A DNA stretch of 64,000 nt, taken from assembly GCA_025360345.1 (NCBI GenBank), contig JANYCJ010000137.1, forward strand, positions 768-64,767. The letters run 5' to 3'. The stretch comes from Alphaproteobacteria bacterium (GTDB taxonomy: Bacteria > Pseudomonadota > Alphaproteobacteria > Rickettsiales > SXRF01). The position numbers and the translations under genes are program-made. Positions 1 through 30,704 of the stretch are shown here, piece after piece. How positions within the stretch are numbered: the stretch's first letter is position 1; every line of letters begins with the position of its first letter. A model generated the notes under the pieces. It was not told the origin of the DNA and searched no databases. It worked only from the letters and a program-made list of their open reading frames with translations.

Positions 1-3000
1 AGCGTGAGGGTGGACGTGCGGCCTTGCCAGCTGTTTCCGCGCCCGGAGAAGCCCGACTGCTCCAGCGTATGCTTCATAGCGGCATCGGCGGTGGTGGAGA
101 ATATGGGGCCGGGATATTCCTCAGCGAGAGCATTTACGATTTTTTCGGACAGGGAGTGGCCGCGATGGGCGGGAGCTACAGCGATATAGCCGAGTTCGGC
201 GACATCGGCGGGGAAGGTAAAGCCACTGCGCTGCGCAATTTTTCCTTCATAGTCGGGGCGCGACCGCTTGATGGCGCCGATGCCGACCACTTCATTTCCC
301 TTATAGACCACGGCCACGCGCCGAGCCTTGAGCATTTCCTGCTCGACGCTGCGCATTTCTACGGTGGATTCAGCGGCGAGGAGCCGCAAAGCCTGCGGAA
401 GCGCGTCTACCACTGCGCCGGGCTCACAGACCCTTATGCTATACCCTTCCCCGATGTCGTTTGTTGCTGCCTGAACGGGTGCAGCGGCGGGCGCGGAAGC
501 CACCACATGCACGTAAGTATCTGCCACGAGGAATGTATCGGTTGCGCCCTGCATGGCCTCCAGTTGTTTGGGGGTAAAGGCGGAGCGCTCCGCGAAATAC
601 TGGTTGCGGGCGTTTTGCTTCCATGCGGGATGGACGGCGATATCCTGGCAGGTGCGGGCCAGAGCGGCCTGTGTTTCCTGCTTTTGCGCGGCGGCGGCCC
701 TTTGTTCGGCGCGCGCTGCGGACGCCATGCGCCGGGATGCCGCTTCGGCGATCATTGCATGAGCGGGCGCCTCTGCCGGCACGAAAATATAGCCAGAGGA
801 AATGACTGCGCCTGCATTTTTCAGCCTTCCCTGTTCGGGCTCCAGAAGCTCGGCACGGGGGATGCGATAGCCGTCGCTATTCCTGATCCATTTGGGATTG
901 CGCGCCGATTCGGCCAGCAACGCATTGGCGGCAACTCTGGCAAGGCCGCTCTCATTAATCATTGTGTCGAGGCGAGAGCCTTCGTTTACCACGAGGCGGC
1001 CATCTTCCTGCAGCATCACGTTATTGCCTTCTGCAAGCAGGGTATCGCGTATATCGTCTGGCAGGCTGGAGGCGCGGACATGCCAGCTATGGGTGCGCTG
1101 GTCGCGCTGCCAGTTCACTTCGCTGGCGGCGCGGGGCAGCATGGTATCAATATTACCGGCCAGAATGCGCTGGCGGTTCTGGACACTTTCAGACACCACG
1201 CGGTCCAGCGTGCTGTTTGGCTCGATGAAGGCGAAGGTGCTGGCAACGATCACGTCGCCGTTGACCCGCCGCATGGTCTGCACCTGTTGCGGCGTGAATT
1301 CTGTCAGGTTGCGGAAATAGCGGCCCTGAGCGTCGCGGTGCCAGTCGGGGAGGCCCGCCAGTTCCTGATAAACATCACTTAAGGTGGCGGGATTGATGCG
1401 CCCATCCTGGGCGGCCTGATCCTGCGCGGCGCGTTCTTCGCTGCGCCACTGGGCCATGGCCTCGCCCAGCGCCTGATGCAGGGTTGTGCCGGAGGTGACA
1501 AAGACATAGCTTGGCGTGCGCAGCAGCCCCGGATTTTCGATAACGCCCAGCGGTTGAAGGTTCAGGCTTCCGGCAGGAATATAATAATTGCCATCACGGT
1601 CACGGCTCCAGTCGCGGTGATTTTGCAGCTCGGCCAGAATACTGGCTTGGGAGGCCGTTCTTGCCTGCGGCTGTGGTTCGAGCGGGGCTTGCGGCACTGT
1701 GACCGGGCGGGGGGCGGGTGCATCGGCACCGATCATTTTTTCGGCGTGGTGCTGCAATTGTGTCGCTGCGCCGTTATATTGTATGGCCGCCCAGGATTCA
1801 TAGGACTCGCGGCGACTCAGGAAGCGCTCAAATTCCGTACGCAGCCACGGGGCGCTCAGGGATTTGGAGCGGATTTCCAGGTAGCCGGCGGTTTTTGCCG
1901 CATCCAGTATGAGGCAAGGTTGCTCGCCCGCGGCCAGATCAGCGCGCTTGCCGGGGGTGTAGTTCCCGCTAGGGTCAATGGCGCCGTGAAAGGTTGTGGT
2001 TTGGGTGCTTAGTGTTTCCAAAAGATAGGGGCCGAGTTCGCGCTTTACGAATTTTTCGCGCTCGGCTTCATCGCGGAAGCTCAGGACCATGTTGTTTTTT
2101 TGCTTATCCCCGGATATCCGAACGAATTTCAGGGCCAATTGCTGTTTCTGCGCGTGGAGGACGCGGTTGATGGTGTCCCATGAGGTGGTGGTGCGCAAGG
2201 CGGCGAGGGCGTATTCGTCTGGGGCTTCGCGGTTTACGGGCGAGACGAAGGCATCGTCGGGGTTGAGAAGCATCTGTCCGGCGAGGCGGTTAAACGTGCT
2301 GCGCCCGATCAGCCGCGGGAGGTCCTGCGCCAGAAGCAGGCGCTGGTTCAGGTAGGCGTGAACCGAGGCCTGCTCTATCTCGCCCTGCACCAGCCGGGTG
2401 CCGCCGCCAAGGGGAATGCTGCGCGGTGCCGGGCTGGCACTGCCCGTGGCGGGCGCCCAAAACGGCTGTCCGGGCGCGGGCTGGCTGAAGGGTGAGACAT
2501 AAGTGATGCCTTTGCTGCGTTCGGTGGCAAGCACGACGGAGGCGACATTGGCCATCATCACCAGATCGGGGTGCGCGTCCATGCCGCCATGGCGGACTTC
2601 GTAGCGTTTTGAGCCGTTTTCACCGACGATGCGGACGGCGTATTGCCCCTTTTCGGCCCTAGCTTCGAGCAATTTTGAAGCATAATCGCTGTGGGAGGCC
2701 CCGAAATTGCGGGTGAGGGCATTATCCGAGGGAAGGAAAAAGACCTGCGTTTCATCCAGCACCCGGATCAGACCCTGCTCTACATCGCGGGCAAATTCGT
2801 TGAGATTTCCATATTGGTCTACCAGCAGGTTTGCGCTGGCGGGCGGGGTTACGGTGACACGGCCATCGGCTATACTGGTATTGGCATTTATGTACTGGCT
2901 GATATCCTGATTATAGATACCCATATGCACATGAAAGCCGTTGCCATAGGCTGAGGGGGTAATTTTAGGCCGGAGATTGACAACCAGTCCCTGCTCCTGC

Positions 3001-3323
3001 GCCACCTGCTTAAAAATTTTCTTCAGCTTAACGGCCCATTCGCCGGCGACTACGGGGTCGGTGGTGCGCTGGGCCATTTCATACTGGCCGATGCCCGCGT
3101 CAGAGGTTTGCGAGACCAGCTTGATCCCCTGCTGCTCCGCCAGCTGCGCTACGCGGCGCTGGAAATTTTCAATGTCGGGGCCGGTGCGCTCGACCTTCTG
3201 GCCGTTTTTAAAGAGGTAATATTCCAGTTCGGGGCCGAAATAGAGATATACACCCTGCTCACGCAGCCAGGACACCATATGGCGGGTCACTGCCTGATTC
3301 TGACGTGTGGCTTCTTCGGACAT
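1..3323 (-). CDS. Large multidomain protein, 3' end cut by the window edge (at least 1107 codons). It has an N-terminal glutamine-synthetase-like catalytic (ATP-dependent amide ligase) domain, central degenerate W-x-R-D/N repeats and a C-terminal GNAT-like acetyltransferase domain.
   Basis: Absent from the ORF track because no stop codon lies inside the window. Hand translation from the ATG at 3323..3321 stays open down to position 3. The N-terminus (MSEEATRQNQ...YFGPELEYYLF...DAGIGQYEM...RPKITPSAYGNGFHVHMGIY...RYEVRHGGMDAHPDLVMMANVAS) follows the order of the glutamine synthetase catalytic motifs. The C-terminus (...AELGYIAVAPAHRGHSLSEKIVNAL...) resembles GNAT motif A. The plus-strand ORFs listed here (e.g. 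24..1382) have antisense-artefact composition. Confidence 0.75.
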   Translation of the reverse strand, partial: MSEEATRQNQAVTRHMVSWLREQGVYLYFGPELEYYLFKNGQKVERTGPDIENFQRRVAQLAEQQGIKLVSQTSDAGIGQYEMAQRTTDPVVAGEWAVKLKKIFKQVAQEQGLVVNLRPKITPSAYGNGFHVHMGIYNQDISQYINANTSIADGRVTVTPPASANLLVDQYGNLNEFARDVEQGLIRVLDETQVFFLPSDNALTRNFGASHSDYASKLLEARAEKGQYAVRIVGENGSKRYEVRHGGMDAHPDLVMMANVASVVLATERSKGITYVSPFSQPAPGQPFWAPATGSASPAPRSIPLGGGTRLVQGEIEQASVHAYLNQRLLLAQDLPRLIGRSTFNRLAGQMLLNPDDAFVSPVNREAPDEYALAALRTTTSWDTINRVLHAQKQQLALKFVRISGDKQKNNMVLSFRDEAEREKFVKRELGPYLLETLSTQTTTFHGAIDPSGNYTPGKRADLAAGEQPCLILDAAKTAGYLEIRSKSLSAPWLRTEFERFLSRRESYESWAAIQYNGAATQLQHHAEKMIGADAPAPRPVTVPQAPLEPQPQARTASQASILAELQNHRDWSRDRDGNYYIPAGSLNLQPLGVIENPGLLRTPSYVFVTSGTTLHQALGEAMAQWRSEERAAQDQAAQDGRINPATLSDVYQELAGLPDWHRDAQGRYFRNLTEFTPQQVQTMRRVNGDVIVASTFAFIEPNSTLDRVVSESVQNRQRILAGNIDTMLPRAASEVNWQRDQRTHSWHVRASSLPDDIRDTLLAEGNNVMLQEDGRLVVNEGSRLDTMINESGLARVAANALLAESARNPKWIRNSDGYRIPRAELLEPEQGRLKNAGAVISSGYIFVPAEAPAHAMIAEAASRRMASAARAEQRAAAAQKQETQAALARTCQDIAVHPAWKQNARNQYFAERSAFTPKQLEAMQGATDTFLVADTYVHVVASAPAAAPVQAATNDIGEGYSIRVCEPGAVVDALPQALRLLAAESTVEMRSVEQEMLKARRVAVVYKGNEVVGIGAIKRSRPDYEGKIAQRSGFTFPADVAELGYIAVAPAHRGHSLSEKIVNALAEEYPGPIFSTTADAAMKHTLEQSGFSGRGNSWQGRTSTLT

Positions 3324-3599
3324 GGCTGTTACATGGCTTTTGCACTCACTCAGGCCATTATATCTAAATAGAGCGCAGGCAATGTTAAGGTATTGTTAAC
3401 CTCGTTTTCATATTTAAGTCAGCACAGTCATTTTTCCATTTAATTATATCAACAACTTATCTACACGCTTGATTTCAGGCCTGCTCAGCGCAGTGGTTAT
3501 TATTACAGGTAGGGTTACTATTAGCCCGGTCAGCCCTTAGTGAAGGGGCGGGCCCGTATTGGCAACGGGACGTGTATATTCCCTTCTAAATATTGCCGC

Positions 3600-5084
3600 T
3601 TAGATGTGCGCGGAGGCCAGCACGGCGCGAAGGGGGGCCAATTCGGCGGCCACGGGCTGCCATGCGTTGAGCGAATCCGCGTAAAGAGGCCTGCGAACCT
3701 GGCTGGCGCTAGCGGTGGCCACGGTGCGGCGGGTGCGGTAGAATTTCATGCATTGCTCTTCCCATGGGAGCTGGCAATAGGACAGCAGGCCGCCGATGAC
3801 AGTTTCAGGATTTTCCACAAGGTTTTCATAGCTCACATCCAGGATGCGCCCGGGCAGCACATGGTGCCAGTGCCGCATGGTCTGCTGATAGCGGCGGTAA
3901 TAGCGGCCCAGGGTGACCTGATTATAGCAATAGGGCACGCTTCCTACAAAAAGCTGGCGGAACAAAGACCAGCAATTATCCATGGGGTCGCGCACACAGT
4001 GGATGATCGGGGCATGGGGAAAAAGGATGTGAATGAGGCCAATAAGGAAAAAATTGTTCGGCGTTTTATCAACGACGATGCGACGGCCATTGCTACAAAA
4101 CGAGCTGAGATGGTTCAGGTAATACCCGGCCATCTGGTGCACCGCGTCAGCGGTGAGGCCGCTTACCCCTTGGGGAAAAGGCTGCTGTATCATTTGCGGT
4201 ACAAGGGTTGATGCCACGGTGGACATGATATCTGCTTCACCCGCGCCGAACACGGAGGGGTGGGAAGCGAGGATTTGTTCAACCAGCGTTGTGCCGGAAC
4301 GCGGCATTCCCAGGATAAAGACGGGCGATATTTCATAACGCTGCGTGTTGAGCAGCTTGTCGAACAGGGCCCCGTCAAATACCCTCTCGATTTCGGACAG
4401 GGTGGCGAAATGGCGCTTTTCATCGTAATGGGAAAGGGTGAGCTGGAGGTCGTTGCCTTCTTCGAAATATCGGAAGGCCTTCGGGATCTCGCGCTGAAAT
4501 TCATATAATTTTGCCAGCGCGAAACAGGCGTAGACTCGGTCGGCTCCCTTGCAGGCTTCGGAGCTATAGATGGTATGGAGATGGTCTATGATGGTTTGAT
4601 CCGGGGATTCGATCAGCAGGTAATTGAAGATGAGCCGGACATTATATGGGTCGCTTAACAACGATTTCCTGTAATATTTGAGCGCCTCGGGGAATGCGCC
4701 CTCGACCATGCAGCAAATACCCAGCCCCTGAAGGCTCGCCGCGTTGCCGGGGGATTTTTTGAGGGCCAGCGTATAAGCTTTTCGGGCCAGATGAAACCGG
4801 CGCAACTCAAACAAGGTGTTGGCCAGGGAGTTAAGCAATAAGGGCTGGCCGGCATACTGGCGAATCAGACCTTCCAAAACAGCTACGGGGTTTTCCGCCA
4901 GGTTTCCGAGAATACAATTCTGTATCAACTCACGGGAAACCCGGCCTGCTGGGGCAACAGAAAAGGTAGCGGATGCGACGAACTGTGACAAAGTTTTATC
5001 AACCATACTGATAGCAGCCATGCATTCTTTACCGGAGGCTTCGCCACGCGATGCAAGATTTATTGTGCCATTCCAGTACGGCAT
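3600..5084 (-). CDS. TPR-repeat-containing sulfotransferase
   Basis: 494 aa. The N-terminal half is TPR-like (…ARKAYTLALKKSPGNAASLQGLGICCMVEGAFPEALKYYRKSL…). The C-terminal half has the PAPS 5'-phosphosulfate loop PRSGTTLVEQIL and an RDPMDNCWS 3'-phosphate-binding-like motif. Confidence 0.8.
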   Translation of the reverse strand: MPYWNGTINLASRGEASGKECMAAISMVDKTLSQFVASATFSVAPAGRVSRELIQNCILGNLAENPVAVLEGLIRQYAGQPLLLNSLANTLFELRRFHLARKAYTLALKKSPGNAASLQGLGICCMVEGAFPEALKYYRKSLLSDPYNVRLIFNYLLIESPDQTIIDHLHTIYSSEACKGADRVYACFALAKLYEFQREIPKAFRYFEEGNDLQLTLSHYDEKRHFATLSEIERVFDGALFDKLLNTQRYEISPVFILGMPRSGTTLVEQILASHPSVFGAGEADIMSTVASTLVPQMIQQPFPQGVSGLTADAVHQMAGYYLNHLSSFCSNGRRIVVDKTPNNFFLIGLIHILFPHAPIIHCVRDPMDNCWSLFRQLFVGSVPYCYNQVTLGRYYRRYQQTMRHWHHVLPGRILDVSYENLVENPETVIGGLLSYCQLPWEEQCMKFYRTRRTVATASASQVRRPLYADSLNAWQPVAAELAPLRAVLASAHI

Positions 5085-5304: not shown

Positions 5305-6042
5305 CTAATAAATCGGGATTACAGCGCTCCAGCGGCCATTGTTTCTGGCATCATCCAGCGGGCTTTCGATGTCGCACGGGGCAACCCAGTGTTTCAGGTC
5401 GTAGCGGAAGATCACGATGTCGCCAATATCCTGCGCGGCGCTGGTGTCGATAATGCTGCCATCGGGCGCCTCGAAGCCGGCGCCTCCTTCGCGGTAGTCG
5501 CGGCCTTGTTTAGAGAAACCGAGGATCAGCCCCAGTTTTTGCGGCTCCAGCAGGTGATGGTGGCTGGCGAACATGCCGCCCCCGGCGGGGTATTGGAAAA
5601 TCTGGGGGCGGAACTGCTTGCCACTGGCATGGGTACCGCTTAAGGGGAGCTGCTGGGCAGTGAGGCTGTTGTAAAACCCGGTGAGGGTATGAAACAGGCC
5701 GTGCACGCCCGGTTTTATGGGCGCGGGAATGTCTTCGGGCGCGTTGAACACATAGGCGTGGAAGTAATGCAGGGTTTTCTGGTAGGCGGAGACGCCTTTT
5801 TCTATGGAGTGGTAATTCTGGCGGGCGGTCTGGCCTTCGTAGCTGATTTTTACTTCGGGTATGAGCCGGTAATAGTCGAAGACCTGCTGGCGGAGCGTGT
5901 CGATCGCAGCGGGGTGGATGCCGCCTTTGATGCAATAGACCGTGCCGTTTTCCAGCACGTCCTGCCCGATGGTTTTATCCGCGCTGCCGAGGGTGAGGGT
6001 TTCGCCTATGCCGGTGGGGGTGGTTTGGATGATTTTAAGCAT
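5305..6042 (-). CDS. Uncharacterised protein, putative double-stranded beta-helix (cupin / Fe(II)-oxygenase-like) fold; paralog A
   Basis: 245 aa. A gapless hand alignment with the 6999..7736 product gives 126/245 identical positions. The conserved block is QYPxGGGMFAxHxHxLEP...KHWVxPCD, giving an H-x-H...H spacing like a metal-binding facial triad. The fold assignment is inferred. Confidence 0.55.
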   Translation of the reverse strand: MLKIIQTTPTGIGETLTLGSADKTIGQDVLENGTVYCIKGGIHPAAIDTLRQQVFDYYRLIPEVKISYEGQTARQNYHSIEKGVSAYQKTLHYFHAYVFNAPEDIPAPIKPGVHGLFHTLTGFYNSLTAQQLPLSGTHASGKQFRPQIFQYPAGGGMFASHHHLLEPQKLGLILGFSKQGRDYREGGAGFEAPDGSIIDTSAAQDIGDIVIFRYDLKHWVAPCDIESPLDDARNNGRWSAVIPIY

Positions 6043-6053
6043 GGGCGTTTCCT

Positions 6054-6998
6054 TCAGACCCTGACAAGGTATGTGGCCTGTTCAACTGCGCGCGCGCCAA
6101 ATTCTTCTTTCTGGCTGATGAGGCCTTCGTTCAGGAACTGGCCGCCGCGCTCGTTTGAGGTGCCGAAATCGAAATAGCGCTTCTGGGCATAAATGCGGTG
6201 GAGGAGTTCGTCAAAGACGGCGTCTAGCGCGCCACCAAGCCGGCCTTCGGGTGTGCTGGCGATGTATTGGACATGGGCCACTTGCGCGGATTCGAAGATA
6301 ATGCAGCCTGCGAGCATGTCGGCTTCCTGAAATGCGGCGAAGAGGCGGATATTTTGCGGAAAAGCGACGGCGAGGGACTGCATTTCCTGAAGGCTATGGG
6401 TGGGTTTGGTTGCGAATTTTTCATCCAGCAGGTTTTCAAGCATGGCGAAAAATGCGGGATAGTCCGTTGTTTCTTTTACGGCGATGCCTGATTTGGCGGC
6501 CTTTCGGATGCCGCGCTGCCTGCGCCCGGCAAGGCCGGGGGCATGTGCCGTGTCGATGACGGCGGTGACGCTGGAGGCGTGGAGCGTGGCGTTATGGCGA
6601 AACAGGGCGTAGCGGTCTTCCTCGGCAGGGATGTGGTGGTAGATATGGGGGATGCATTTGTAGTGCAGCTCGGCAATGCCGCTTGCGTGAAGATGTTCCA
6701 CCAGCTTGCTGAACAGGGTAAGCATGGTGGTGGTTTTCATAGCGCTATCGGTGAGCCAGCCGCCAAAGGTGAGTCCCTGATGGGTATGCAGTGTGGCGCC
6801 ATCGCGGTTTGCAGGGAGCAGGGCGACGGGCGTTTGCCCACAATAGGCGATGAGGGAATGGTCCTGGAAGCGGGAAGCGTGATACTCCATAAAGTCCCGA
6901 CAGAATAGGAACAAGCCGTTTTTTGAGGTGTTTACGAACTGGTCCCACATTGCTTTACCGGTAGGGGCGTAGGGTTTGAGGAGGATATCTTCGGTCAT
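6054..6998 (-). CDS. FemAB-like / two-lobed GNAT-fold acyl- or aminoacyl-transferase
   Basis: 314 aa. The pattern MWDQFVNTSKNGLFLFCRDFMEYHASRFQDHSL...HTHQGLTFGGWL recalls the GNAT/FemAB-like proteins found in sugar-modification clusters. The assignment is from memory of the family, not from a search. The gene abuts the next gene (stop of 6999..7736 directly follows). Confidence 0.5.
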   Translation of the reverse strand: MTEDILLKPYAPTGKAMWDQFVNTSKNGLFLFCRDFMEYHASRFQDHSLIAYCGQTPVALLPANRDGATLHTHQGLTFGGWLTDSAMKTTTMLTLFSKLVEHLHASGIAELHYKCIPHIYHHIPAEEDRYALFRHNATLHASSVTAVIDTAHAPGLAGRRQRGIRKAAKSGIAVKETTDYPAFFAMLENLLDEKFATKPTHSLQEMQSLAVAFPQNIRLFAAFQEADMLAGCIIFESAQVAHVQYIASTPEGRLGGALDAVFDELLHRIYAQKRYFDFGTSNERGGQFLNEGLISQKEEFGARAVEQATYLVRV

Positions 6999-7736
6999 TT
7001 AATATACCCCCATGATGGCAACCCAGCGGCCATCTTGCGCGGCGGGGTCGAGGGGATGTTTCAGGTCGCACGGGGTGACCCAGTGTTTCTGGTCTACGCG
7101 GAAGATGAGCAGGTCGCCGATGTCATGGGTTCCGGCGGTGTCAATGATGGTACCGTCAGGGGATTCGAAGCCGGCGGCGCCTTCGTTAAAATCGCGCCCG
7201 CGTTTGGACAGGCCGAGGATGAGGCTCATGCGGAAGGGTTCCAGCGGATGGGTGTGGGCGGCGAACATACCCCCTCCCCTCGGATATTGCACCACCTGCA
7301 GGTGGAAGCGCCTGCCATCGTGATGCGGCCCGATGAGGGGGCGGGATGACTGGGTAAGGCCATTATATATAGTGGTGAGATTGGTGAAGAGCCCTTTGAC
7401 ATCGCCGTGCAGGGATTGCGGGAGGGCATCGAGATCGTCGAAGACATAGGAATGGAAGTAATGCAGGCTTTTCTGGCCGAGGGAGACACCTTTTTCGATG
7501 CCGTGGTAATTGGCTTTCCAGTTTTCGCCGCCATAGTTTTTCACGGTGTGCGGCTGGGCGGCAAAATGGCGGAAGATGCGGGTGCGCAAGCTGTCAATTT
7601 CGGTGGGTGCGAAACAGTTTTTGGCGCAATAGACCGTGCCGTTTTGCATGATATCGGCGGCGATGGTGTTTATGTCCGCAGGCAAAGTAAGGGTTGCGGT
7701 GATGGGGATGGGCGTGTTGTGGAGGGTTTTGAGCAT
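6999..7736 (-). CDS. Uncharacterised protein, putative double-stranded beta-helix fold; paralog B
   Basis: 245 aa, colinear with the 5305..6042 product (126/245 identical by hand alignment). It has the same QYPRGGGMFAAHTHPLEP...KHWVTPCD motifs. Confidence 0.55.
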   Translation of the reverse strand: MLKTLHNTPIPITATLTLPADINTIAADIMQNGTVYCAKNCFAPTEIDSLRTRIFRHFAAQPHTVKNYGGENWKANYHGIEKGVSLGQKSLHYFHSYVFDDLDALPQSLHGDVKGLFTNLTTIYNGLTQSSRPLIGPHHDGRRFHLQVVQYPRGGGMFAAHTHPLEPFRMSLILGLSKRGRDFNEGAAGFESPDGTIIDTAGTHDIGDLLIFRVDQKHWVTPCDLKHPLDPAAQDGRWVAIMGVY

Positions 7737-9383: not shown

Positions 9384-9553
9384 CCATGGATATCGCCAGA
9401 TTATCAGCCCCTTATCAATAGTGACAAAGACGGGGCCGCGAATCCAGCGTAAAATGGAGCGAAATGGGGCGGGACATAAAATTCATATCTTATTAATACA
9501 TTAAATTATATAAATATAAGCAGATTTCTTGCTCTTTCAGGAAGGCCCGCCGC

Positions 9554-9961
9554 TTGCCACATGCCAAACTTATTGCACTTCACAGCGTGGACCACGGGGA
9601 GATGGGCACGCTGGGGGTGGCTGAACAGGGCAAGGACATTCCCTTTGCCATCCGGCGGGTTTTTTACCTGTATGGCATGAAAAAGGGCGCGGTGCGGGGC
9701 GACCATGCGCACAAGGCACAGGAGCAGTTCATTATCTGCCTGAGCGGAAGCATTTCCCTGAATACGATTGATGCCGAGCATGAGGAACATTTTACCCTGT
9801 CGCACCCAAGGCAGGGGGTTTATCTGCCTGCCATGACATGGGTGCGGGTACAGGCCGTTTCGGTTCCGGCGATCTACATGGTTGCCGCATCGGGGCTGTA
9901 TGACGAAGCCGATTATATCCGCGATTACGCGGTCTTTAAAACCCTGACTGGGGGCGCGTAA
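9554..9961 (+). CDS. WxcM/FdtA-like cupin, putative dTDP-4-keto-6-deoxyhexose 3,4-ketoisomerase
   Basis: 135 aa with a TTG start. The motifs …GTLGVAEQGKDIPFAIRRVFYLYG…VRGDHAHK…QFIICLSGS… match the FdtA/QdtA family pattern (PF..RR.YY, RG.HAHK). Confidence 0.7.
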   Translation: MPHAKLIALHSVDHGEMGTLGVAEQGKDIPFAIRRVFYLYGMKKGAVRGDHAHKAQEQFIICLSGSISLNTIDAEHEEHFTLSHPRQGVYLPAMTWVRVQAVSVPAIYMVAASGLYDEADYIRDYAVFKTLTGGA

Positions 9962-9965
9962 CCCT

Positions 9966-11072
9966 GTGCAGATACCGCTTAACGATTTGAAGCGCCATGT
10001 TACGCCGTTGATGGCGGAGCTGATGGGTGCGTGTGAGGCGGTGGTGGCCAGCGGGCAGTATGTGCTTGGCGCGCAGGGCGAGGCGTTTGAAGTGGCATTT
10101 GCGGCGTATTGCGGGGTGGCGCACTGCGCGGGCGTGGCCAACGGGACGGAGGCGCTGGAGCTTGCCGTGACCGCAGCTGGCTGCGGCGCGGGCGACGATA
10201 TTGTGACCGTGGCCAATGCCGGGGGGTATGCCAGCGCCGCTATTTTGCACGCGGGGGCCACACCGGTGTATGCGGATATCGACCCGCTGAGTTTTGTCAT
10301 GACGGCGGAGCATTTTCTTCAGGCGCGGACAGCAGCCACCAAGGCGGTGATTGTGACCCACCTTTACGGGCTGATGGCGGACATGCCTGCCATTTGCGAG
10401 GCGGCGGGGCGCTACGGCATCACGGTGATTGAAGACTGCGCGCAAGCGCACGGGGCAAGCCGGGACGGGCGCAAGGCCGGAAGCTGGGGGGCAATGGGCT
10501 GTTTCAGTTTTTATCCCACTAAAAACCTTGGCGCGCTGGGGGATGCGGGCTGCGTGGTGACGCGGGATGCACCGCTGGCGGCGCGGATCAAGAGCTTACG
10601 GCAGCATGGCTGGGGAGAAAAATATATTGTACCGCGTGAGGTGGGGCGCAATAGCCGCATGGACGAACTGCAGGCGGCGCTACTGCTGCGGATGCTGCCT
10701 TACCTCGACCGGTGGAATGAGGTGCGGCGAAATATTGCCCGGCGCTACCGGGAGGCGGGGATTACAGGCGTGCGTTTCCAGCAGGTTGGGCGGGAGGAAG
10801 GCTACGTCGCGCATTTATGCGTGGCTTTCAGCGAGCGCCGGGAGGAGATTATGGCGGGATTGCAGCGTGCCCAGATCGGTGCTGCGGTGCACTACCCGGT
10901 GGCGGATTACGCGCAGCCGGGCTTTCGCAAGCGCATGGGCGACGTTGCGCCCCTGCCGCATACTGAGCAGGCGCTGGGGGGTATCTTTAGCCTGCCGTGC
11001 TTCCCCGAAATGACGGATGACGACATTGAACAGGTGATCCGCGTTCTTCAACATCATGGACAGGCTTTATGA
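9966..11072 (+). CDS. DegT/DnrJ/EryC1/StrS-family PLP-dependent sugar aminotransferase
   Basis: 368 aa with a GTG start. It has the typical N-terminus IPLNDLKRH, the motifs …IEDCAQAHGA… and …FSFYPTKNLGALGDAG… (PLP lysine context). The gene overlaps the next gene by 4 nt. Confidence 0.9.
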   Translation: MQIPLNDLKRHVTPLMAELMGACEAVVASGQYVLGAQGEAFEVAFAAYCGVAHCAGVANGTEALELAVTAAGCGAGDDIVTVANAGGYASAAILHAGATPVYADIDPLSFVMTAEHFLQARTAATKAVIVTHLYGLMADMPAICEAAGRYGITVIEDCAQAHGASRDGRKAGSWGAMGCFSFYPTKNLGALGDAGCVVTRDAPLAARIKSLRQHGWGEKYIVPREVGRNSRMDELQAALLLRMLPYLDRWNEVRRNIARRYREAGITGVRFQQVGREEGYVAHLCVAFSERREEIMAGLQRAQIGAAVHYPVADYAQPGFRKRMGDVAPLPHTEQALGGIFSLPCFPEMTDDDIEQVIRVLQHHGQAL

Positions 11073-12019: not shown

Positions 12020-14068
12020 TTATTCCGCCCCGCGCTCCAGCACCAGAATATTGCCGAATCGCAATGCTTCCTTATATCCTTCGAGGCGGGCTTTTTTTAC
12101 CAGCATGGCATAGCGCGGCTCGTCGTTTTTGCTGGCTATGAAGCGTGGCTGGCGGTGCAGGATGTCATCTATCTGCTCCTCGGGCGAGGTGGCCTTGCGA
12201 AGCAGCAGGGAGTTTTGCTTGTCCAGCAGCAGCGCGCGTGGGAAGACATGCAGGGTGACGATGGGGCTCTTCATATAATAAGGCAGGAGCGGCAGGTCGT
12301 AGGTAAATACAGGCTGCCCCCCGCCTCCCTGAAGCAGCATGAACTCGCTCAGCTTATAGACGCCGTCATGCTGCAGGGGCAGGTTATTATTCCATTTGGC
12401 GGCGAGCTCGAAGCCGCTCAGTGTATTGTCGCGGATATTATAAAGGGCGAATACCGTGACTGCGGCGACCAGAAGGGCGGTTATACGCCGGGTCATGAGC
12501 ACGGAGACGGCCGCGCCGAGCAGGATGGAAAAGGGCACGATCATTTGCAGCAGGTAATGCTCATGCTGGTAGACAAGGATGAAAGTGGCGCAGAAAACGC
12601 CCACGGTGATGACGAGAAGCTCCAGCATCTGGCGGCGCATGGGGCAATCGCGCCGCCCCAGCTGCACGGCGGCGGCCAGCAGCAATGCCAGCGGCAGCGC
12701 CCAGATGCGCCCGATTTCCGCGGCAAAGCGCGTGGCGGAGATGAGGTATTGGGAGGCGAGCGAAGGCAGGTTTTGCGATGCCACCTCCACCCCGGAGTCC
12801 GAAAAACCGGCAAAGGGGGCGAGCACCATGCCGTTTACCAAGGTGCGCACGTGGCCGATAGAGGCATATAAAGCGAATAGCACTATATAAGGAATAAGCG
12901 TGCCGCTGCCCAGCCAGAGGATGGGTTTTATACGGGCAGTGAGGGTTGGGGCTTTGCGCAGGAAAAGGACGAGGGCGAGGAAAGGCAATGCCACGATGAG
13001 GTTGGTACGGGTCAGGGTGGCGCAGGCGGCGAAAAGGCCTGCCAGGAGCATATCGCGGCTGGTTGCAGCTGGCTTCAGGGCGAAGTATAGCATCAGCGCT
13101 AAGGGGAGGCTGGCGGCCAGTTCGGTGAAGATGAAAGTGTTACCGTGGTCAAAGGTATAAGCAGGCACGCTGAAGGCGAGCAGGCCGAATGCGGCGCTGG
13201 CTATGCCCGCATAAGGCAATGCCATGTTCTTTCCAATACGGTAGAGCACGTAGCTGGTGAAACCCAGATAGAATGCCATCATCAGGCGGACACCCGGCAG
13301 GGAAGAGGCGAAGAGCTCGAAAAAGGCATAAATTACATTCACCAGCGGGGGCTTGTTCTCGAAAGTAGCAAGGTAGGGCCAGTTGCCCTGCAGCAGGTCA
13401 CGCCCTAGCAGAAGGAACGCGCCCTCATCGCCAGAGGCCCATTCACATAAATATGGCAGGCGCAGCACAACAGAAAAAAACAGGCACAGCGCAAGCACAG
13501 CATGATCGCGGCTGATGCGGGGGCGGTAGCGCAGGGCCAGCCCCCCGGCCACGCACAGCAGGCCGGATAGCAGGATGGCCGTTGTTTGCAGGCGGCCGGG
13601 AAGATGGGCGGCAACCGGTTCAAAGCGGAGGCCATAATAGGCGCCGCCGTTATCATCAATTTCAATATGGATCTTGTTGCTGCCTACATTCAGCACAGAC
13701 CGCAGCTCCACGATGAAGCCTTCCTTGTCGCATTTGTTGACATCTGCGGGGATGTTGAAATCGGCGCTGTTTACGCGCAGCACGGTAACGCAGTCATCGG
13801 GAATGACCTGAAATCGCGCCCGCTCACCCTTGTTGTAAAACAGGGTGATGTTAAAGCTGTAATGCCCTTTCTCTTTCACCTCGTTATGGATGTAGGGCAG
13901 CGAGGCCTCGACGGGGAAGCGATAGGTGTCGCCGGATACGACGACCTTGCCGATCGTGGGGATAAGGGATTGTGCATATACCGCCCACAGCCAAAATCCC
14001 AGCCAGAGGGCCGCGCCGAATGCGCAAAGGAGTGTGGATGGCTTTGTGGTATGGCGGAAACCGCGCAT
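12020..14068 (-). CDS. GT-C-type polytopic membrane glycosyltransferase (ArnT/PMT-like) with an extra N-terminal periplasmic domain
   Basis: 682 aa. It has an N-terminal anchor helix, a soluble segment of about 125 aa, then many hydrophobic helices and a C-terminal soluble domain. The gene is convergent with and directly abuts the GT2 gene. The family call rests on topology and context rather than on a strict motif. Confidence 0.6.
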   Translation of the reverse strand: MRGFRHTTKPSTLLCAFGAALWLGFWLWAVYAQSLIPTIGKVVVSGDTYRFPVEASLPYIHNEVKEKGHYSFNITLFYNKGERARFQVIPDDCVTVLRVNSADFNIPADVNKCDKEGFIVELRSVLNVGSNKIHIEIDDNGGAYYGLRFEPVAAHLPGRLQTTAILLSGLLCVAGGLALRYRPRISRDHAVLALCLFFSVVLRLPYLCEWASGDEGAFLLLGRDLLQGNWPYLATFENKPPLVNVIYAFFELFASSLPGVRLMMAFYLGFTSYVLYRIGKNMALPYAGIASAAFGLLAFSVPAYTFDHGNTFIFTELAASLPLALMLYFALKPAATSRDMLLAGLFAACATLTRTNLIVALPFLALVLFLRKAPTLTARIKPILWLGSGTLIPYIVLFALYASIGHVRTLVNGMVLAPFAGFSDSGVEVASQNLPSLASQYLISATRFAAEIGRIWALPLALLLAAAVQLGRRDCPMRRQMLELLVITVGVFCATFILVYQHEHYLLQMIVPFSILLGAAVSVLMTRRITALLVAAVTVFALYNIRDNTLSGFELAAKWNNNLPLQHDGVYKLSEFMLLQGGGGQPVFTYDLPLLPYYMKSPIVTLHVFPRALLLDKQNSLLLRKATSPEEQIDDILHRQPRFIASKNDEPRYAMLVKKARLEGYKEALRFGNILVLERGAE

Positions 14069-14225: not shown

Positions 14226-15317
14226 TTATGCGGAAATTTTGGATGACACCGGGACGGCTACCCGCAGCGGGGAATGCACAAGCTGATGGATGAAAGATAG
14301 CTTGGCGATGACATTCGGCGAAAGAATGAAAGGGTAAATATCGCTTAGCCCCATGCTGCGGTTCATGGCGTTCATGGCGTAGGTGAGCGGCAGCCAGACG
14401 TCGATGAACTCTTCGAAGCTTGTTAAGAGGTAGGGGTCGATAGTGGCGGTGGCGTGCAGCACCTTCTCATTGGTGATATTTGGGTGTACGGCAATGCCGT
14501 AGGCGTTTGAAGTTTCCAGGCTATCAACGATATGGAGGTAGTGCGCCCAGGTTTCGGCGAAGTCTTCCCAAGGATGGCTGGTGGCGTAGGTGCTGACGAA
14601 ATTTTCCTGCCAGTTGGCGGGGGCGCCTTCATTATAATGGCGTTTCAGGGCTTCGGCGTAATCCATCCGGTCGTCGCCGAATACGGCGCGGGATTCGTCC
14701 TGACGCTGCTGGTCGCGGATGAGGCGGTCCCAATAATAATGGCCGATTTCATGGCGGAAATGGCCGAGCAGCGTGCGGTACGGCTCATGCATCTGGGTGC
14801 GCATGGTTTCGCGCTGGGCGTCGTCGGCTTCTTTCAGGGCAAGGGTGATGATGCCTTCGTCATGGCCGGTGAGTACTTTTTTATCCGGGTCAGTGTCGGC
14901 GAGAAAGTCGAAAGCCAGACCATGCTCGGGATCATCGACACGGTTGGGAAGGGGCAGTTGCAGCCGCAGGAGGGTATAGAACAGGCGGTGCTTGGCGAAT
15001 TCCATTTTGCGCCAGTTTTCCATATTTTTTTCATCGGAAAGATCGGGTACGGTGCGGTTATGGCGACAGGCAATGCAGAATTTTTCATGGCTGGTAGCAG
15101 GAATGAGCCAGTTACAGGCGTCATATTTCGCGTTTTCACAGAATTTGGACAGCGCCCCGGGCAGCGCCATGAGCTGCCACAGGTCATTTCCGGCAGGCTG
15201 GAGGGCGCTTAGCTGGTTTTCCACTGGGAGGTAGCCAAGCACGCAGCCGCAGCGGGTGCAGTTACGGTTTTCAAAGAAAAGAATGAGTTCGCAGTTCTGG
15301 CATTTAAAGAGTTTCAT
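14226..15317 (-). CDS. Zinc-ribbon plus putative zinc metallopeptidase-domain protein
   Basis: 363 aa. The N-terminus has a CxxC...CxxC pattern (MKLFKCQNCELILFFENRNCTRCGC). There is an internal HExxH motif (FRHEIGHYYW). Confidence 0.7.
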   Translation of the reverse strand: MKLFKCQNCELILFFENRNCTRCGCVLGYLPVENQLSALQPAGNDLWQLMALPGALSKFCENAKYDACNWLIPATSHEKFCIACRHNRTVPDLSDEKNMENWRKMEFAKHRLFYTLLRLQLPLPNRVDDPEHGLAFDFLADTDPDKKVLTGHDEGIITLALKEADDAQRETMRTQMHEPYRTLLGHFRHEIGHYYWDRLIRDQQRQDESRAVFGDDRMDYAEALKRHYNEGAPANWQENFVSTYATSHPWEDFAETWAHYLHIVDSLETSNAYGIAVHPNITNEKVLHATATIDPYLLTSFEEFIDVWLPLTYAMNAMNRSMGLSDIYPFILSPNVIAKLSFIHQLVHSPLRVAVPVSSKISA

Positions 15318-19521: not shown

Positions 19522-22257
19522 ATGGGCCAACCCAGCAGCCTGCCAAAAGAACCGCCGCTAAACCCTACCGATTTCGGATCGGTGTTCCGGGCTGCACCCG
19601 GTATGTACCTGCTTCTGCTGCCGGATGCGCCTAAGTATACCATTATTTCCGCAAGCGAAGCTTTTTCGCAGGCGATGCTGGTTAACGGCGCGGATATCGA
19701 ATCCAAAGGTATGTTCGATGTGTTTTTCCCTGAGGAAGCCAGTGAAAAGCCGGTCTCTATGGCGCTGCGCTCTTCGCTGCAACAGGTGCTGCACGGGCTG
19801 AAATCGCATGAGATGGAAGTGCAGAAATACGATTTGCACCGCAAGACCAGCAGTGGCACGGTGATAGAGGAAAAATACTGGAGCCCGCTGAATACGCCGG
19901 TGTTCGACATAGACGGAAAGCTGCAATACATCCTGCACCGCGTGCTCGACGTGACTGAGAAAATGACACTGGAAAAAGAGCGTGAGCGGTTTTTTACGCT
20001 GGGCACGGATATGCTGGTGGTGGCAGGCTATGATGGGTATTTCAAAAAAGTGAACCCCGCGTGGGAAGAAACGCTGGGCTGGACGCAGGAAGAAATGCTT
20101 AGCAGGCCGTGGATTGATTTTGTGCACCCCGATGATGTGCAGGCCACCCATGACGCCAAGGACAAGCTGGAAGCCAATATTCCCATCAAGAATTTTGAAA
20201 ACCGTTACCGCTGCAAAGACGGCAACTACCGCTGGCTCAGCTGGAAGACACATCCCTACCCGTTGGAAAAGCTGATTTACGGCGGGGCGACAGATATTAC
20301 AGAGCGCAAGAAGACCGAAGAGTCGCTACGCGCCAGCGAAAGAAAGTTCCGCCAGCTGGCCAATGCCATGCCGCAGGTGGTGTGGACCGCGATGCCCGAC
20401 GGGCAGCTGAATTACGTTAACGAACGCTGCTTCGAGTATTCCGGCACGCTGCGCACGGAAAATAACACCGTGGACTGGGCACCCATTATCCACCCTGAGG
20501 ATTTGCAGCATACGCTTTTCGTATGGAGCAACTGTGTGGCGTCGGGCAAGCCGTACGAAGTGCTCCAGCGCATCTTCCACGCGGCCAGCGGACACTACCG
20601 CTGGAACCTGACCAGGGCGCTGCCCGTGCACGACGAACTGGGCAACGTGACCAAATGGTATGGCACCAATACGGATATTGAAGACCAAAAAAGTACGGAA
20701 GACGCCTTACGCAAAAGTGAGCAATTCAACCAGAGCATTATCGACAGCAGCCCGGACTGCATTAAAGTGCTGGATATGGACGGCCATCTGCTTTCCATGA
20801 ATGAGGAAGGCTGCCGACAGATGGAGGTGGATGATTTCTCGGTCTGCATTAATAAACCGTGGATCGGCTTCTGGGACGGGGTGGAAAGGGCTGCTGCGGA
20901 ACAGGCGCTGCAGGCTGCGCGCAGAGGGGAAAAGGGTTTTTTCCAGGGTTTCTGCGCCACCATGAAAGGCACGCCGCGCTGGTGGGAAGTGATCGTAGCG
21001 CCGATACGGGGCAACGATGGAAAAACGGTGCAGATCTTATCCGTTTCACGCGATATCACCGAGCGCAAGAAGCTGGAAGATGCGACAAGGGACGCGCGGG
21101 AGCTGGCAGAAGCGGCAAATATCGCCAAGAGCGAGTTCCTTGCCAATATGAGCCATGAAATCCGCACACCGATGAACGCGGTGATCGGGCTGGCCAATAT
21201 CCTTGCCATGAGTCAGCCGTTATCGGCGCGGCAGAAAGAATACATCCAGACGTTGCAGATGTCGGCAGACAGCCTGCTTGCGCTGATTAACGACTTGCTC
21301 GATATTTCCAAGATCGAGGCACGCTCGATCGAGCTTGAGCATATTCCGTTCAACCTGAAGCAACTGCTGAACGAAGTGATTAGCATGATGTCTATGCGCG
21401 CTAAGGAAAAGGGACTTGAATTCAGCGTGCTGGGCGATTGCAGCCCGGATTATGTGGTAGTGGGCGACCCCACGCGGTTGCGCCAGATTTTGCTCAACCT
21501 TTGCAGCAACGCCATTAAATTTACGGAAAAAGGTGGGGTTTATGTGAGCATTGACTGCCACGCATCGGGGACGCAGGGTGTGGAAAATGTGTCTATCGCG
21601 GTGCGCGATAGCGGCATTGGTATTTCTCCCGAGCACCAGGAATCCATTTTCCATAAATTTATCCAGGCGGATTCAAGCATCACCCGCAAATATGGCGGGA
21701 CAGGGCTAGGGCTGGCCATTACCAAGACGCTCACTGAAATCATGGGCGGAACAATCTGGCTGACCAGCGCGGTGGGCAAAGGCTCCACCTTTACCGTGAA
21801 ACTGCCGATGAGGGTGGGCGGCGGCGAGGTGCAGGCCGAGGCGAATGTGCCCTTCGCCGCCGAGGCGTTTACCAAGCAAAGCTTCCGCGTGCTGCTGGTG
21901 GAGGATTATGCGGCCAATGTACTGGTGGCGGGAAGCTACCTTGAGCAATTCGGCTATGCTTATGACGTGGTGGATAATGGTTATGACGCGGTGGAAAAGG
22001 CCAAGTCTGGACAATATCTGGCCATATTGATGGATGTGCAAATGCATGGCATTAACGGGTTTGAGACGACACGGCTGATACGGGCGCATGAAAAATCAAC
22101 CGGGATGCCGCGGGTGCCGATCCTCGGCATGACCGCACATGCGCTGATGGGCGACCGGGAACGATGCCTCGAGGCAGACATGGACGATTACCTATCCAAG
22201 CCTTATAACCCCACGGAGCTGGAGCGAAAGCTGGCGGCTTACCGTGAAAAAAACTAG
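19522..22257 (+). CDS. Hybrid sensor histidine kinase (multiple PAS, HisKA-HATPase, C-terminal REC)
   Basis: 911 aa. H-box: [19 protein letters not shown]/G boxes: [19 protein letters not shown] and [23 protein letters not shown]…[11 protein letters not shown]…SKP. Confidence 0.95.
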   Translation: [911 protein letters not shown]

Positions 22258-22757
22258 CCCTCTTTTGCCGCTTTAAGGGCTGCTTCCGCCCGGACGAGAC
22301 CGATCTGGTCAATATTACCTTTGCTATCCACCAGCTGGTTTGCAGTAACGGCGCCGACAAGGGCGGCCACTTCGCGCTTTACTTTTTCGACATCGGTGGT
22401 GAGTTCGCTTACTGTGGCGCCGCCCCCTCCCCCGCTTTTCGGCGGTGGGGGTGGTGGCGGAGGCGGTGGCAGCGGGGCCGCGTTTTTATCCCCGGGTTTC
22501 GCGGGCTGGCCAGACGGGGGCTGTGCACGCGTGGCGGGAGTGCCTGCGGTTGCTGGGGAGAGAGTTTGCGCATCGGCTATAGATTGCGCGGGGGCCGTAA
22601 GATCCAGCTGCACAGCGGGGCCATGGGTGTCGCCCGTGGGTGCGGAGGCGGCGGGCGGGACGGTGGCGGCCTGTTTGGCGGCGGCTTCTTCAAGTTGCTG
22701 CAGGAGCGCGGTGGCTGCCTGGGTGGTGAGAGTGGTGGGTGGTGTGATACTGCTCAT
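22254..22757 (-). CDS. Hypothetical Ala/Pro/Thr-rich protein with poly-Pro and poly-Gly tracts and a helical C-terminal domain
   Basis: 167 aa. The sequence …NAAPLPPPPPPPPPPKSGGGGGATVSELTTDVEKVKREVAALVGAV… has an AAAGG element about 10 nt upstream of the ATG. The opposite-strand ORF 22321..22788 looks like an artefact. No family was recognised. Confidence 0.45.
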   Translation of the reverse strand: MSSITPPTTLTTQAATALLQQLEEAAAKQAATVPPAASAPTGDTHGPAVQLDLTAPAQSIADAQTLSPATAGTPATRAQPPSGQPAKPGDKNAAPLPPPPPPPPPPKSGGGGGATVSELTTDVEKVKREVAALVGAVTANQLVDSKGNIDQIGLVRAEAALKAAKEG

Positions 22758-22890
22758 AATGAGGGCCTTTGTGATTGCTACCTGCTGACCTTATTACAAC
22801 GTATAGGGGTGCAAAAAACTTACGCTATTGCAGCAAAAAAAATCTCCATCCGTTTAAATGTGCAAGATATGGCTATGATATTTCATTTTA

Positions 22891-24456: not shown

Positions 24457-25022
24457 GATGCTTCTACTTTCTGCAGATATGCTGCGATTTCCGCAAGACT
24501 GAGGCGGAGCGCCGTAGGACATGCCTTCAGGGCGGCCTCAGGCATGGGGGTTGACTGGGCGGTGGCGGGGTCCTGCACCAGGGCAGTGCCGCCTGCCGCC
24601 ACAATGGCTTTCAGGCCTTTTGCGCCGTCTTCATTGGCGCCGCTTAACACGATGCCGATAAGCGACTCACCGTAAGCGTCGGCAGCGGTTTCAAAAAGTA
24701 CATCAATTGCGGGACGGGAAAATAATACAGGCTCTTCGCTGGACAGTGACAACGACTGGTTTTTTTCTACCAGAAGATGGTAATCGGGCGGGGCGAAGTA
24801 GACAGAGGCTGGTTCTATGGCCACTTTGTCCTCAGCTTCAATGACCTTTACCTTGCACTTGTATTGAAAGAGGTCTGCGAGGATGCTTTTCTTGTCGGGA
24901 GGGACATGCACCACCACCATGACTGGCAAGGGGAAATCACCGGGGAGCGCGGGAAGGATGGCCGTAAGCGCTTCGACCGCGCCGGCGGAGGCTCCGATAA
25001 CAACAGCACGGGCAACGGTCAT
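24453..25022 (-). CDS. cheB: CheB-type protein-glutamate methylesterase, catalytic domain only (no REC)
   Basis: 189 aa. The sequence VVIGASAGAVEAL…VVVHVPP…SRPAIDVLFETAA…IVLSGANEDGAKGL carries the Ser-His-Asp esterase core. It begins directly with the catalytic domain. Confidence 0.9.
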   Translation of the reverse strand: MTVARAVVIGASAGAVEALTAILPALPGDFPLPVMVVVHVPPDKKSILADLFQYKCKVKVIEAEDKVAIEPASVYFAPPDYHLLVEKNQSLSLSSEEPVLFSRPAIDVLFETAADAYGESLIGIVLSGANEDGAKGLKAIVAAGGTALVQDPATAQSTPMPEAALKACPTALRLSLAEIAAYLQKVEAS

Positions 25023-25849: not shown

Positions 25850-25858
25850 GGCTGCACC

Positions 25859-29275: not shown

Positions 29276-29384
29276 GCTTTTTTTCCGTATTTAGTGATAC
29301 CGATGTTCGCACAGCCCCGTTAAAAGCTGCTTAACCAGCCCATAAAGGGCTTACGGGTATAAAAAAGCAATAAAGATTACCTGT

Positions 29385-29422
29385 AAAATTTATTTAATTT
29401 AAAGGGAAAGCGGCATTTTCCC
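29385..29422 (-). terminator. Candidate rho-independent terminator downstream of 29458..29955
   Basis: The minus-strand transcript would read GGGAAA-ATGCCGC-TTTCCC followed by TTTAAATTAAATAAATTTT. That is a 6-bp stem with a U/A-rich tail. Confidence 0.45.
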
Positions 29423-29457
29423 ACTATGAAACAGGGGCGGCTTTCTCCCGGAAAGCA

Positions 29458-29955: not shown

Positions 29956-30055
29956 GGCATTACCATAAAACTGATTGAATCTGGTTTTGGCCTAGCATAT
30001 TGCACTCTTTGCTGCAAAATGCCACCAGTGGTCTGGTAGGCTGTATGATTATATT

Positions 30056-30214
30056 TTACGCGGGCTGGCGAGTTTCAAAACGCCGCTTTTCCGATTTTTC
30101 GACCTGCACAATCCGGGAATTATGGATGGTCACTTCCACGCTTCCAAAGTTTACATCTTTTATGGTGTTTAATATATAGCGTTCTACTTCATCCAGCTCG
30201 TTTTCCTTGCTCAT
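30056..30214 (-). CDS. YezD/DUF2292-like small protein (52 aa), below the ORF-track size cut-off
   Basis: Hand translation gives MSKENELDEVERYILNTIKDVNFGSVEVTIHNSRIVQVEKSEKRRFETRQPA. The core GSVEVTIHN.RIVQ.EK.EK is the DUF2292 pattern as I recall it. A GGGAG sits 6 nt upstream of the ATG, and the gene lies 31 nt downstream of the Rrf2 gene. Confidence 0.65.
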   Translation of the reverse strand: MSKENELDEVERYILNTIKDVNFGSVEVTIHNSRIVQVEKSEKRRFETRQPA

Positions 30215-30245
30215 CTCATCTCCCGTGGTTGTTAAAAGGGTTTCA

Positions 30246-30686: not shown

Positions 30687-30704
30687 AGTAAAGTTATATG
30701 CATT

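Follow-up and report, generated by a model that had tools for sequence, protein, structure and literature searches.

A giant orphan gene predicted to join a glutamine synthetase-type ligase head and a GNAT domain on an array of a new repeat domain

Enzymes with the glutamine synthetase (GS) fold bind ATP and two divalent metals, convert a carboxylate to an acyl-phosphate and form an amide when an amine attacks it. They are almost always ring-forming metabolic enzymes that need the beta-grasp domain of a neighbouring subunit, which in true GS forms the ammonium pocket, and a Glu flap shuts the site. The GS-fold carboxylate-amine ligases reportedly also include PafA/Dop and the gamma-glutamylcysteine ligases. 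PafA, the Pup ligase, does without the GS ring architecture and joins a carboxylate to a protein lysine; to our knowledge it is the only well-known protein-directed relative within this fold. The available excerpts of Iyer, Burroughs, Anand, de Souza and Aravind (2017, PMC5512222) describe polyvalent proteins, giant multi-enzyme proteins into which stand-alone GNATs were repeatedly accreted, and none of the three mentions of “ligase” in these excerpts concerns a GS-type ligase. The present study deals with a giant minus-strand gene at the left end of a 64,000-nt stretch, referred to here as the window, of contig JANYCJ010000137.1 (GCA_025360345.1, positions 768-64,767, forward strand). Its product appears to combine a GS-type ligase head without a beta-grasp domain, an array of a new domain, named here the W-module, and a GNAT domain embedded in this array. 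Table 1 provides an overview of the features.

Table 1. Features of the giant gene and its neighbourhood in the window (aa, amino acid residues; LOO, leave-one-out score of the module).
Feature	Position (nt)	Strand	Residues or size	Remarks
Giant open reading frame, visible part	1..3323	-	codons 1-1107	open frame; continues past the window's left end
GS-type catalytic domain	2319..3290	-	aa 12-335	no beta-grasp; Pfam, alignment, tblastn
Region X	1659..2318	-	aa 336-555 (~220 residues)	Pro/Ala/Gln-rich linker at its end
W-module 1	1428..1640	-	aa 562-632	DWSRDRDGNYY...; LOO 24.8 bits, shuffles at most 5.7
W-module 2	1158..1373	-	aa 651-722	DWHRDAQGRYF...FTPQQVQTM; LOO 41.5 bits
W-module 3	921..1142	-	aa 728-801	NWQRDQRTHSW...; LOO 7.2 bits, marginal; most divergent copy
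W-module 4	708..920	-	aa 802-872	KWIRNSDGYRI...; LOO 28.3 bits
W-module 5	438..653	-	aa 891-962	AWKQNARNQYF...FTPKQLEAM; LOO 41.2 bits
GNAT domain	1..449	-	aa ~959-1107 visible	ends at about aa 1113, just beyond the window; Pfam, exhaustive search
Intergenic spacer	3324..3599	-	276 bp	AT-rich; upstream of the ATG; in-frame stop 25 codons upstream
TPR-sulfotransferase	3600..5084	-		part of the glycan-type set
Two paralogues	5305-6042 and 6999-7736	-	245 residues each	51% identical, gapless; no Pfam family
Fem-like Acetyltransf_6 gene	6054-6998			between the two 245-residue paralogues
Listed open reading frame	9506-10300	-	264 residues	overlaps the DegT gene; low-complexity, Ala/Ser/Pro-rich; no family match
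DegT aminotransferase	9966-11072	+		well supported; divergent from the glycan-type set, as is GT2
Protein with ~11 hydrophobic segments	12020-14068	-	682 residues	beside DegT/GT2; no Pfam/NCBIfam match

Translation of window positions 1..3323 on the minus strand gives 1107 sense codons without a single stop, just as the sequence-only reading had claimed, and the longest open run in any frame among 200 shuffles of this DNA is 340 codons. The frame was left out of the list of open reading frames (ORFs) solely because it runs off the window, which is also the explanation that had been offered. The ATG at 3323 is the earliest ATG, GTG or TTG after an in-frame TAA sited 25 codons upstream. An exact look-up of the neighbouring sulfotransferase returned two further contigs, a 7140-bp contig (JAYULS010000132.1, referred to here as L001) of the NCBI metagenome-assembled genome (MAG) GCA_043763375.1 and a contig (L002) from the Logan assembly of SRR23617308. 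Both are 100% identical to the window DNA across the overlaps. The DNA of the giant ORF agrees in the window, the NCBI MAG contig and the Logan contig, all domain junctions included. On L001 the frame grows by 256 codons to at least 1363 codons and is open at the contig end; the leftward extension that had been proposed therefore lengthened the gene but did not reach its 3' end. The giant ORF is a real gene of at least 1,363 codons. Its codon-position GC is 0.66/0.46/0.69, of which the GC at third positions (GC3) is typical of the genome. The three plus-strand ORFs lying over it (24..1382, 1476..2012 and 2089..2355) match no protein family; being opposite a GC3-rich gene, they are probably shadow ORFs. 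No clear Shine-Dalgarno sequence is found ahead of the ATG. The protein has no transmembrane segments (maximum hydropathy 1.21), and its N-terminus, MSEEATRQNQ..., is unlike a signal peptide as judged by eye.

The N-terminal head matches the Pfam family Gln-synt_C (PF00120) at aa 12-263 with 72.6 bits against a curated cut-off of 24 (E=4e-20), spanning positions 7-260 of the 344 profile positions, and tblastn against plasmid-borne “glutamine synthetase family” genes aligns aa ~10-329 at ~25% identity. Weak matches in the PDB are to glutamine synthetases and the PA5508-like 4hpp. The NCBIfam matches, among them the gamma-glutamylputrescine synthetase model, score 37.3, 36.5 and 27.6 bits as opposed to equivalog cut-offs of 469.6, 429 and 650. 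The head was aligned with all 12 relatives returned by the word-indexed search (alignment A2), every one of which is an ordinary enzyme of 445-447 residues with PF03951 and PF00120. The motifs GPExE, GQxE, NGxHxH, NxxxR and RxExR stand in the same order as in type I/III GS, PuuA, GlnA3 and PA5508/4hpp: GPELEY holds E32 and E34, D75 replaces the glutamate of HHEV, GQYE holds E82, GNGFHVHM holds G127, G129, H131 and H133, and N201, R205 and R222 as well as R240, E242 and R244 of RYEVR are conserved. All six metal-ligand positions (E32, E34, D75, E82, H131 and E242, which we take to correspond to E129, E131, E212, E220, H269 and E357 in enterobacterial GS numbering) are retained with one exchange of Glu for Asp, and so are the predicted phosphoryl-transfer residues H133, R205, R222, R240 and R244. 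Because the metal ligands and the phosphoryl-transfer Arg and His residues are conserved, ATP-dependent acyl-phosphate chemistry is probably intact. The motifs that had been quoted for residues ~1-285 are all present, although the domain extends further, to about residue 335.

Unlike the members of the GS family, however, the head has no N-terminal beta-grasp domain (PF03951). The GS domain begins at residue 12, and a beta-grasp cannot hide upstream because the in-frame TAA leaves no alternative start, so that the earlier remark that there was no room for it is borne out. In addition, the flap segment reads GASHS where the relatives have GYEAP, the position of the Glu flap (Glu327) is not Glu, the equivalent of Asn264 is Tyr126, and 21 residues are inserted at about aa 150-172. 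Instead of forming a ~450-aa subunit of a ring oligomer, the domain heads a protein of at least 1363 aa. According to the Pfam match and the alignment, the head is a very divergent member of the GS catalytic-domain superfamily; judged by the beta-grasp, Glu327, Asn264 and the NCBIfam cut-offs, it is not a bona fide glutamine synthetase. A likeness to PafA would be one of working only, namely GS-fold ligation onto a macromolecular amine, whereas the PafA/Dop and GCS families gave no match in the Pfam and NCBIfam scans and no Pup-like gene was seen.

The second head matches Pfam Acetyltransf_1 (PF00583) at aa 999-1072 with 23.9 bits against a cut-off of 20.7, and both enzyme families named in the sequence-only reading, Gln-synt_C and GNAT, are thus found above their curated cut-offs. 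Of the 565 matches that an exhaustive HMMER scan of 1.84 billion representative proteins gave at E≤0.001, none reaches E≤1e-30, and they comprise only GNAT relatives and ordinary GS enzymes. Among the best 150 of these 565 matches, 149 cover residues ~935-1107 alone, with E-values down to 1.3e-26, and the GNAT relatives among these 150 are mostly stand-alone proteins of 150-190 residues with 29-50% identity. Every invariant or nearly invariant column of the family is kept in the embedded domain (AIK, ELGY, HRG..LS, TT, M, F, G and two Trp; alignment A5), and the HRGHSLS segment lies where the pyrophosphate-binding loop would usually be expected. Judging from this alignment, the domain is a complete copy of an uncharacterised stand-alone GNAT family of ~160 residues, which has no solved structure and no named member. 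Its final ~six residues (…LTLWQRDA) are found on L001, followed by an Ala/Gln-rich linker and W-module 6. The GNAT is internal, between W-modules 5 and 6, since L001 carries the frame on through W-module 6 and a second repeat type. A GNAT had been placed correctly in the last ~150 visible residues, but these are not the end of the protein, whose frame runs to at least 1363 codons. Likewise, the three parts described earlier, a beta-grasp-less GS ligase, repeats and a GNAT, are all there, but the GNAT is embedded in a longer array and not tethered at its far end.

Stand-alone members of the family such as P0001, P0003 and WP_153516992.1 from Agrobacterium pAt2 match the embedded GNAT along its full length at 31-47% identity and have every invariant position in common with it; in contrast to them, the domain described here is internal to a giant protein. 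The fusion partners seen in some relatives are Schlafen/AlbA_2 (matched weakly to PDC-S50 by PADLOC), a region with a weak, sub-threshold trypsin-like peptidase match, and unannotated regions. On Agrobacterium tumefaciens pAt2 (NZ_CP048568.1, L003:5512-8000), a relative lies beside a second GNAT, a TIR-domain protein and an AAA ATPase with an S8 peptidase. On Sphingomonas morindae p1 (NZ_CP084932.1, L004:2621-6900), a relative lies beside phospholipase D, a RES NAD+ phosphorylase, DUF736 and SSB. These settings give hints of an unstudied GNAT family in defence or anti-defence gene sets on conjugative plasmids. A 1272-aa protein near the relative on the Sphingomonas plasmid was considered as a relation of the giant protein, and no relationship was found. 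An assignment to GNAT toxins of the TacT/AtaT type was rejected, as there is no sequence match to any solved GNAT.

Between the two heads, the protein consists of region X and the W-modules. Each module was tested by the leave-one-out method, in which a hidden Markov model (HMM) built from the remaining copies is compared with the copy and with 1000 shuffles of it. For the copies starting at aa 562, 651, 802, 891 and 1160, the shuffles never exceed 9.9 bits. The last of these is W-module 6, which lies beyond the window on L001, reads LAWQRDGNNNLF…FNEAQLETL and scores 36.5 bits. For W-module 3 at aa 728, one of the 1000 shuffles is as good. Of the five degenerate W-x-R-D/N modules recognised earlier in the window, four are therefore well recovered at 24.8-41.5 bits, their shuffles reaching 9.2 bits at most, whereas the copy at aa 728 is marginal. 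A further candidate at aa 1253 (0.6 bits, 110/1000 shuffles as good) is not supported. The motif W-x-[RQ]-[DN] is located at residues 572, 661, 738, 812 and 901 in the window and at 1170 in the extension, and the continuation FTP(Q/K)Q(V/L)(Q/E)(T/A)M noted for two modules is present in W-modules 2 and 5. The linkers between the modules have 0-18 residues, both 18-residue linkers being Ala/Gln-rich, and in W-module 5 a Pro/Ala linker takes the place of the last helix and leads directly into the GNAT.

The structure prediction and the Foldseek search that had been recommended for the module yielded a confident fold with no significant match. For residues 649-724, i.e., W-module 2 extended by two residues at either end, AlphaFold2 with a five-row alignment including the four other window copies gave a model with a mean predicted local distance difference test (pLDDT) score of 87.7 and a predicted template modelling (pTM) score of 0.72. 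The predicted fold is alpha-beta-beta-alpha-beta-beta-alpha, in which a helix would be followed by a hairpin with W..RD..G.Y, a helix, a hairpin and a long helix. Foldseek returned nothing below E=0.4 in the PDB and nothing below E=0.04 in BFVD, with template modelling (TM) scores of at most 0.5; recurring weak matches to CRP and MotA were taken as noise. The profile of the module found no relative in the set of 5.8 billion proteins or elsewhere in the window, and only noise among the PDB sequences, such as a likeness to GATA fingers (W-R-R-D..G) that is due to chance. By its profile and predicted fold, the W-module is a previously unseen domain of ~72 residues, present in at least five or six copies. 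Region X has no match in Pfam, NCBIfam, PHROG, PADLOC or the PDB, and its single-sequence AlphaFold model is unusable (pLDDT 39.9). After W-module 6 a second repeat type appears, in which GxxIAxAAGxRTV occurs twice, ~105 residues apart; its copies “RQTVAEGQRIARAAGFRTV” and “QQAIRTGEQIAHAAGSRTV” are found at L001:6750-7139 (residues ~1234-1363) with a local score of 50 as opposed to a maximum of 39 in 1000 shuffles. Since L001 stops just past the second copy, the giant gene probably continues with more copies of this repeat.

No relative of the whole architecture was found in the 1.84 billion representatives or in the word-indexed set of 5.8 billion proteins, in the GTDB genomes searched with the window part and then with the extension, or in the JGI metagenomes and IMG/VR. 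Megablast against plasmids gave no match, and what tblastn recovered from plasmids and phages was limited to GS genes of the ordinary kind and a small number of GNATs. A fusion of GS and GNAT was not found in the literature search either, the protein has no PADLOC match, and its sole PHROG match is a GS-like family of unknown function. The earlier remark that no characterised protein with this combination could be named is borne out in the protein, genome, metagenome, viral, plasmid and phage collections searched. On the basis of these searches, the giant protein is an orphan with a new architecture, made from known catalytic superfamilies and one new domain.

Several other identities were considered and rejected. 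An adhesin or autotransporter was dismissed, given an AIDA match of only E=0.27 and the lack of a signal peptide, and a megasynthase resembling nonribosomal peptide synthetases was dismissed, as carrier and condensation domains were not found in the Pfam scan. The metagenomic protein P0029 is not an architectural relative but simply contains six tandem complete GS units. In this 4424-residue protein, an N-terminal region precedes these units, each with beta-grasp and catalytic domain, and a hexapeptide-repeat-like tail comes last.

We tentatively propose, with a probability of a little under 0.4, that the giant protein is an enzyme of the polyvalent or effector type with two heads, directed at macromolecules and modifying amines, and used on or against another macromolecule or cell. 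The sequence-only reading had suggested an enzyme that modifies a polymer or another protein, which remains an inference. It would be a large soluble protein of at least 1363 aa without a Sec signal, carrying two enzyme heads on a repeat array. The first head would act as an ATP-dependent carboxylate-amine ligase, forming first an acyl-phosphate and then an amide. Because the beta-grasp and the Glu flap are absent, its amine or carboxylate substrate may be bulky and not ammonia, for example a protein side chain, a peptide, a polyamine or an amino-polymer. For the second head, acyl-CoA would be the acyl donor and an amine the acceptor; this head could have been acquired from the pool of stand-alone GNATs that is also found in defence-island and plasmid settings. 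The 72-residue modules with their Ala/Gln-rich helical linkers may set the distance between the heads or serve to bind a target that is repetitive or multivalent. This reading is favoured because of the polyvalent-like pattern of accretion, the company kept by the GNAT relatives and the orphan status of the protein. A very large protein in which catalytic and repeat domains alternate is suggestive of a conflict or effector role, and two catalytic domains, a GS-type ligase and a GNAT, are found in one giant polypeptide with at least two repeat types, as in polyvalent proteins. As far as the excerpts of PMC5512222 go, the likeness to polyvalent proteins comprises the giant polypeptide, the combination of several catalytic domains with non-catalytic modules, and a GNAT with a widespread stand-alone version.

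There are nevertheless considerable points against an effector of this kind. Unlike the loci of polyvalent proteins, the visible flank holds no phage or conjugative genes: within 60 kb rightward there are no secretion-system, phage, plasmid or immunity genes, and the only secretion gene in the window is the flagellar flhB, 50 kb away. The codon usage is native, and the genome-typical GC3 of 0.69 argues that the gene is not a recent import. The lack of a PADLOC match and a lone PHROG match to a GS-like family without assigned function give no support, and the accessory domains typical of polyvalent proteins (MuF, ArdC, LPD etc.) did not appear in the Pfam scan (E up to 1). The sequence seen includes neither the C-terminus nor the left flank, in which one would look for a secretion signal or for partner genes, and all of it derives from one population. 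The conclusion on the substrate drawn from missing GS elements is indirect, and the domain could also be inactive or act on small molecules.

A bolder form of the proposal is that the N-terminal head is the first true GS-family, as opposed to PafA-family, domain working without a beta-grasp, and that this amide ligase is directed at macromolecules and belongs to a new class of chromosomal multi-headed effector built on the W-module. We consider this unlikely. Such a ligase might glutamylate or cross-link a protein or an amino-polymer. If it is true, a giant modular protein headed by an intact-looking GS domain without a beta-grasp would extend the known roles of the fold. Apart from this, the W-module is a confidently predicted domain without detectable sequence relatives or a significant fold match in the PDB or among viral models, and the embedded GNAT brings a multi-enzyme context to a family of stand-alone acetyltransferases that is large but unstudied. 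The generality is low for now, with a single uncultured lineage and a 3' end beyond the sequence.

In line with the suggestion made in the sequence-only reading, the giant protein could belong with the adjacent locus and tailor an envelope glycan or another self-polymer, which we regard as somewhat unlikely. Here, the GS head would work on a sugar, whose carboxylate or amine it would amidate or aminoacylate; the DegT aminotransferase would make an amino sugar for the GNAT to N-acylate, and the repeats would hold the growing repetitive polymer. The giant gene is indeed on the same strand as, and directly downstream of, a glycan-type gene set, which besides the genes in Table 1 holds a hexapeptide acyltransferase and a weak, sub-threshold GH43/BNR-like match. 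Moreover, both heads would act on carboxylates and amines such as amino-sugar polymers offer, a multivalent repeat array would fit a repetitive polymer, and the codon usage is native. The spacer, however, separates the giant gene from the sulfotransferase by 276 bp that are markedly AT-rich for this genome and contain several in-frame stops, with GC dropping to 0.51 in the bin 3001-3500, and this gap suggests a transcription unit apart from the glycan genes. The minus strand of the spacer shows no consensus sigma-70 promoter and no terminator, and Rfam gave no match anywhere in the window. Eleven distant relatives of the sulfotransferase (28-37% identity) have nothing like the giant gene nearby, the giant gene has no relatives whose co-occurrence could speak for the link, and of the two plasmid loci examined, neither places a GNAT relative in a glycan context. 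We also know of no glycan-locus enzyme of such a size or architecture. No evidence linking the giant gene to the adjacent glycan locus was found. We think that the protein is not a step in building the neighbouring glycan.

Two further explanations are less likely than either the polyvalent or effector proposal or a role in the glycan locus. The protein could be an enzyme for small-molecule amines, for example one that neutralises polyamines by gamma-glutamylation and N-acetylation, with the repeats serving as a scaffold for oligomerisation or localisation. PuuA/GlnA3 and SpeG are precedents for the use of primary amines by GS-like and GNAT enzymes, respectively, and the ligase head has its nearest relatives among ordinary “glutamine synthetase family proteins” and also matches 4hpp in the PDB and, in NCBIfam, the model for gamma-glutamylputrescine synthetase. 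These likenesses, however, amount to ~25% identity at best and to 37 bits against equivalog cut-offs of 430-650, the beta-grasp required for the inter-subunit active site of all those enzymes is absent, and more than 1000 residues of repeats and other regions without matches are hard to explain in a metabolic enzyme, which makes this explanation improbable. It is very improbable that the gene is a decaying, non-functional mosaic or an assembly artefact of GS and GNAT gene fragments joined to repetitive filler, for although it is an orphan in a single population, has a GS domain without a domain essential in its relatives, lacks an obvious Shine-Dalgarno sequence and is known from three assemblies that may stem from related samples, it stays open over at least 1363 codons where shuffles reach 340 at most, keeps the catalytic residues of both heads, has identical DNA in all three assemblies across every domain junction, and contains diverged W-modules still predicted to fold confidently, which implies selection on structure.

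The remainder of the window is ordinary chromosome of an uncultured alphaproteobacterium with alaS, flhB, histidine kinases and a solute-binding protein beside a porin, and its AlaRS is ~55% identical to those of Sinorhizobium, Sphingomonas and Azospirillum. Within the surroundings of the glycan-type set, the listed ORF that overlaps the DegT gene is probably not a gene. The product of 12020-14068 may, as a guess, be an ArnT/GT-C-like membrane glycosyltransferase. A putative metallopeptidase with Zn_ribbon_DZR_6 and Peptidase_Mx (14226-15317, minus strand, E=2e-112) is encoded between an FAD monooxygenase and the glycan genes. Further to the right, the region 19522-38882 holds four large hybrid histidine kinases of 911, 543, 1138 and 1231 residues together with a bacteriophytochrome kinase (36615-38882).

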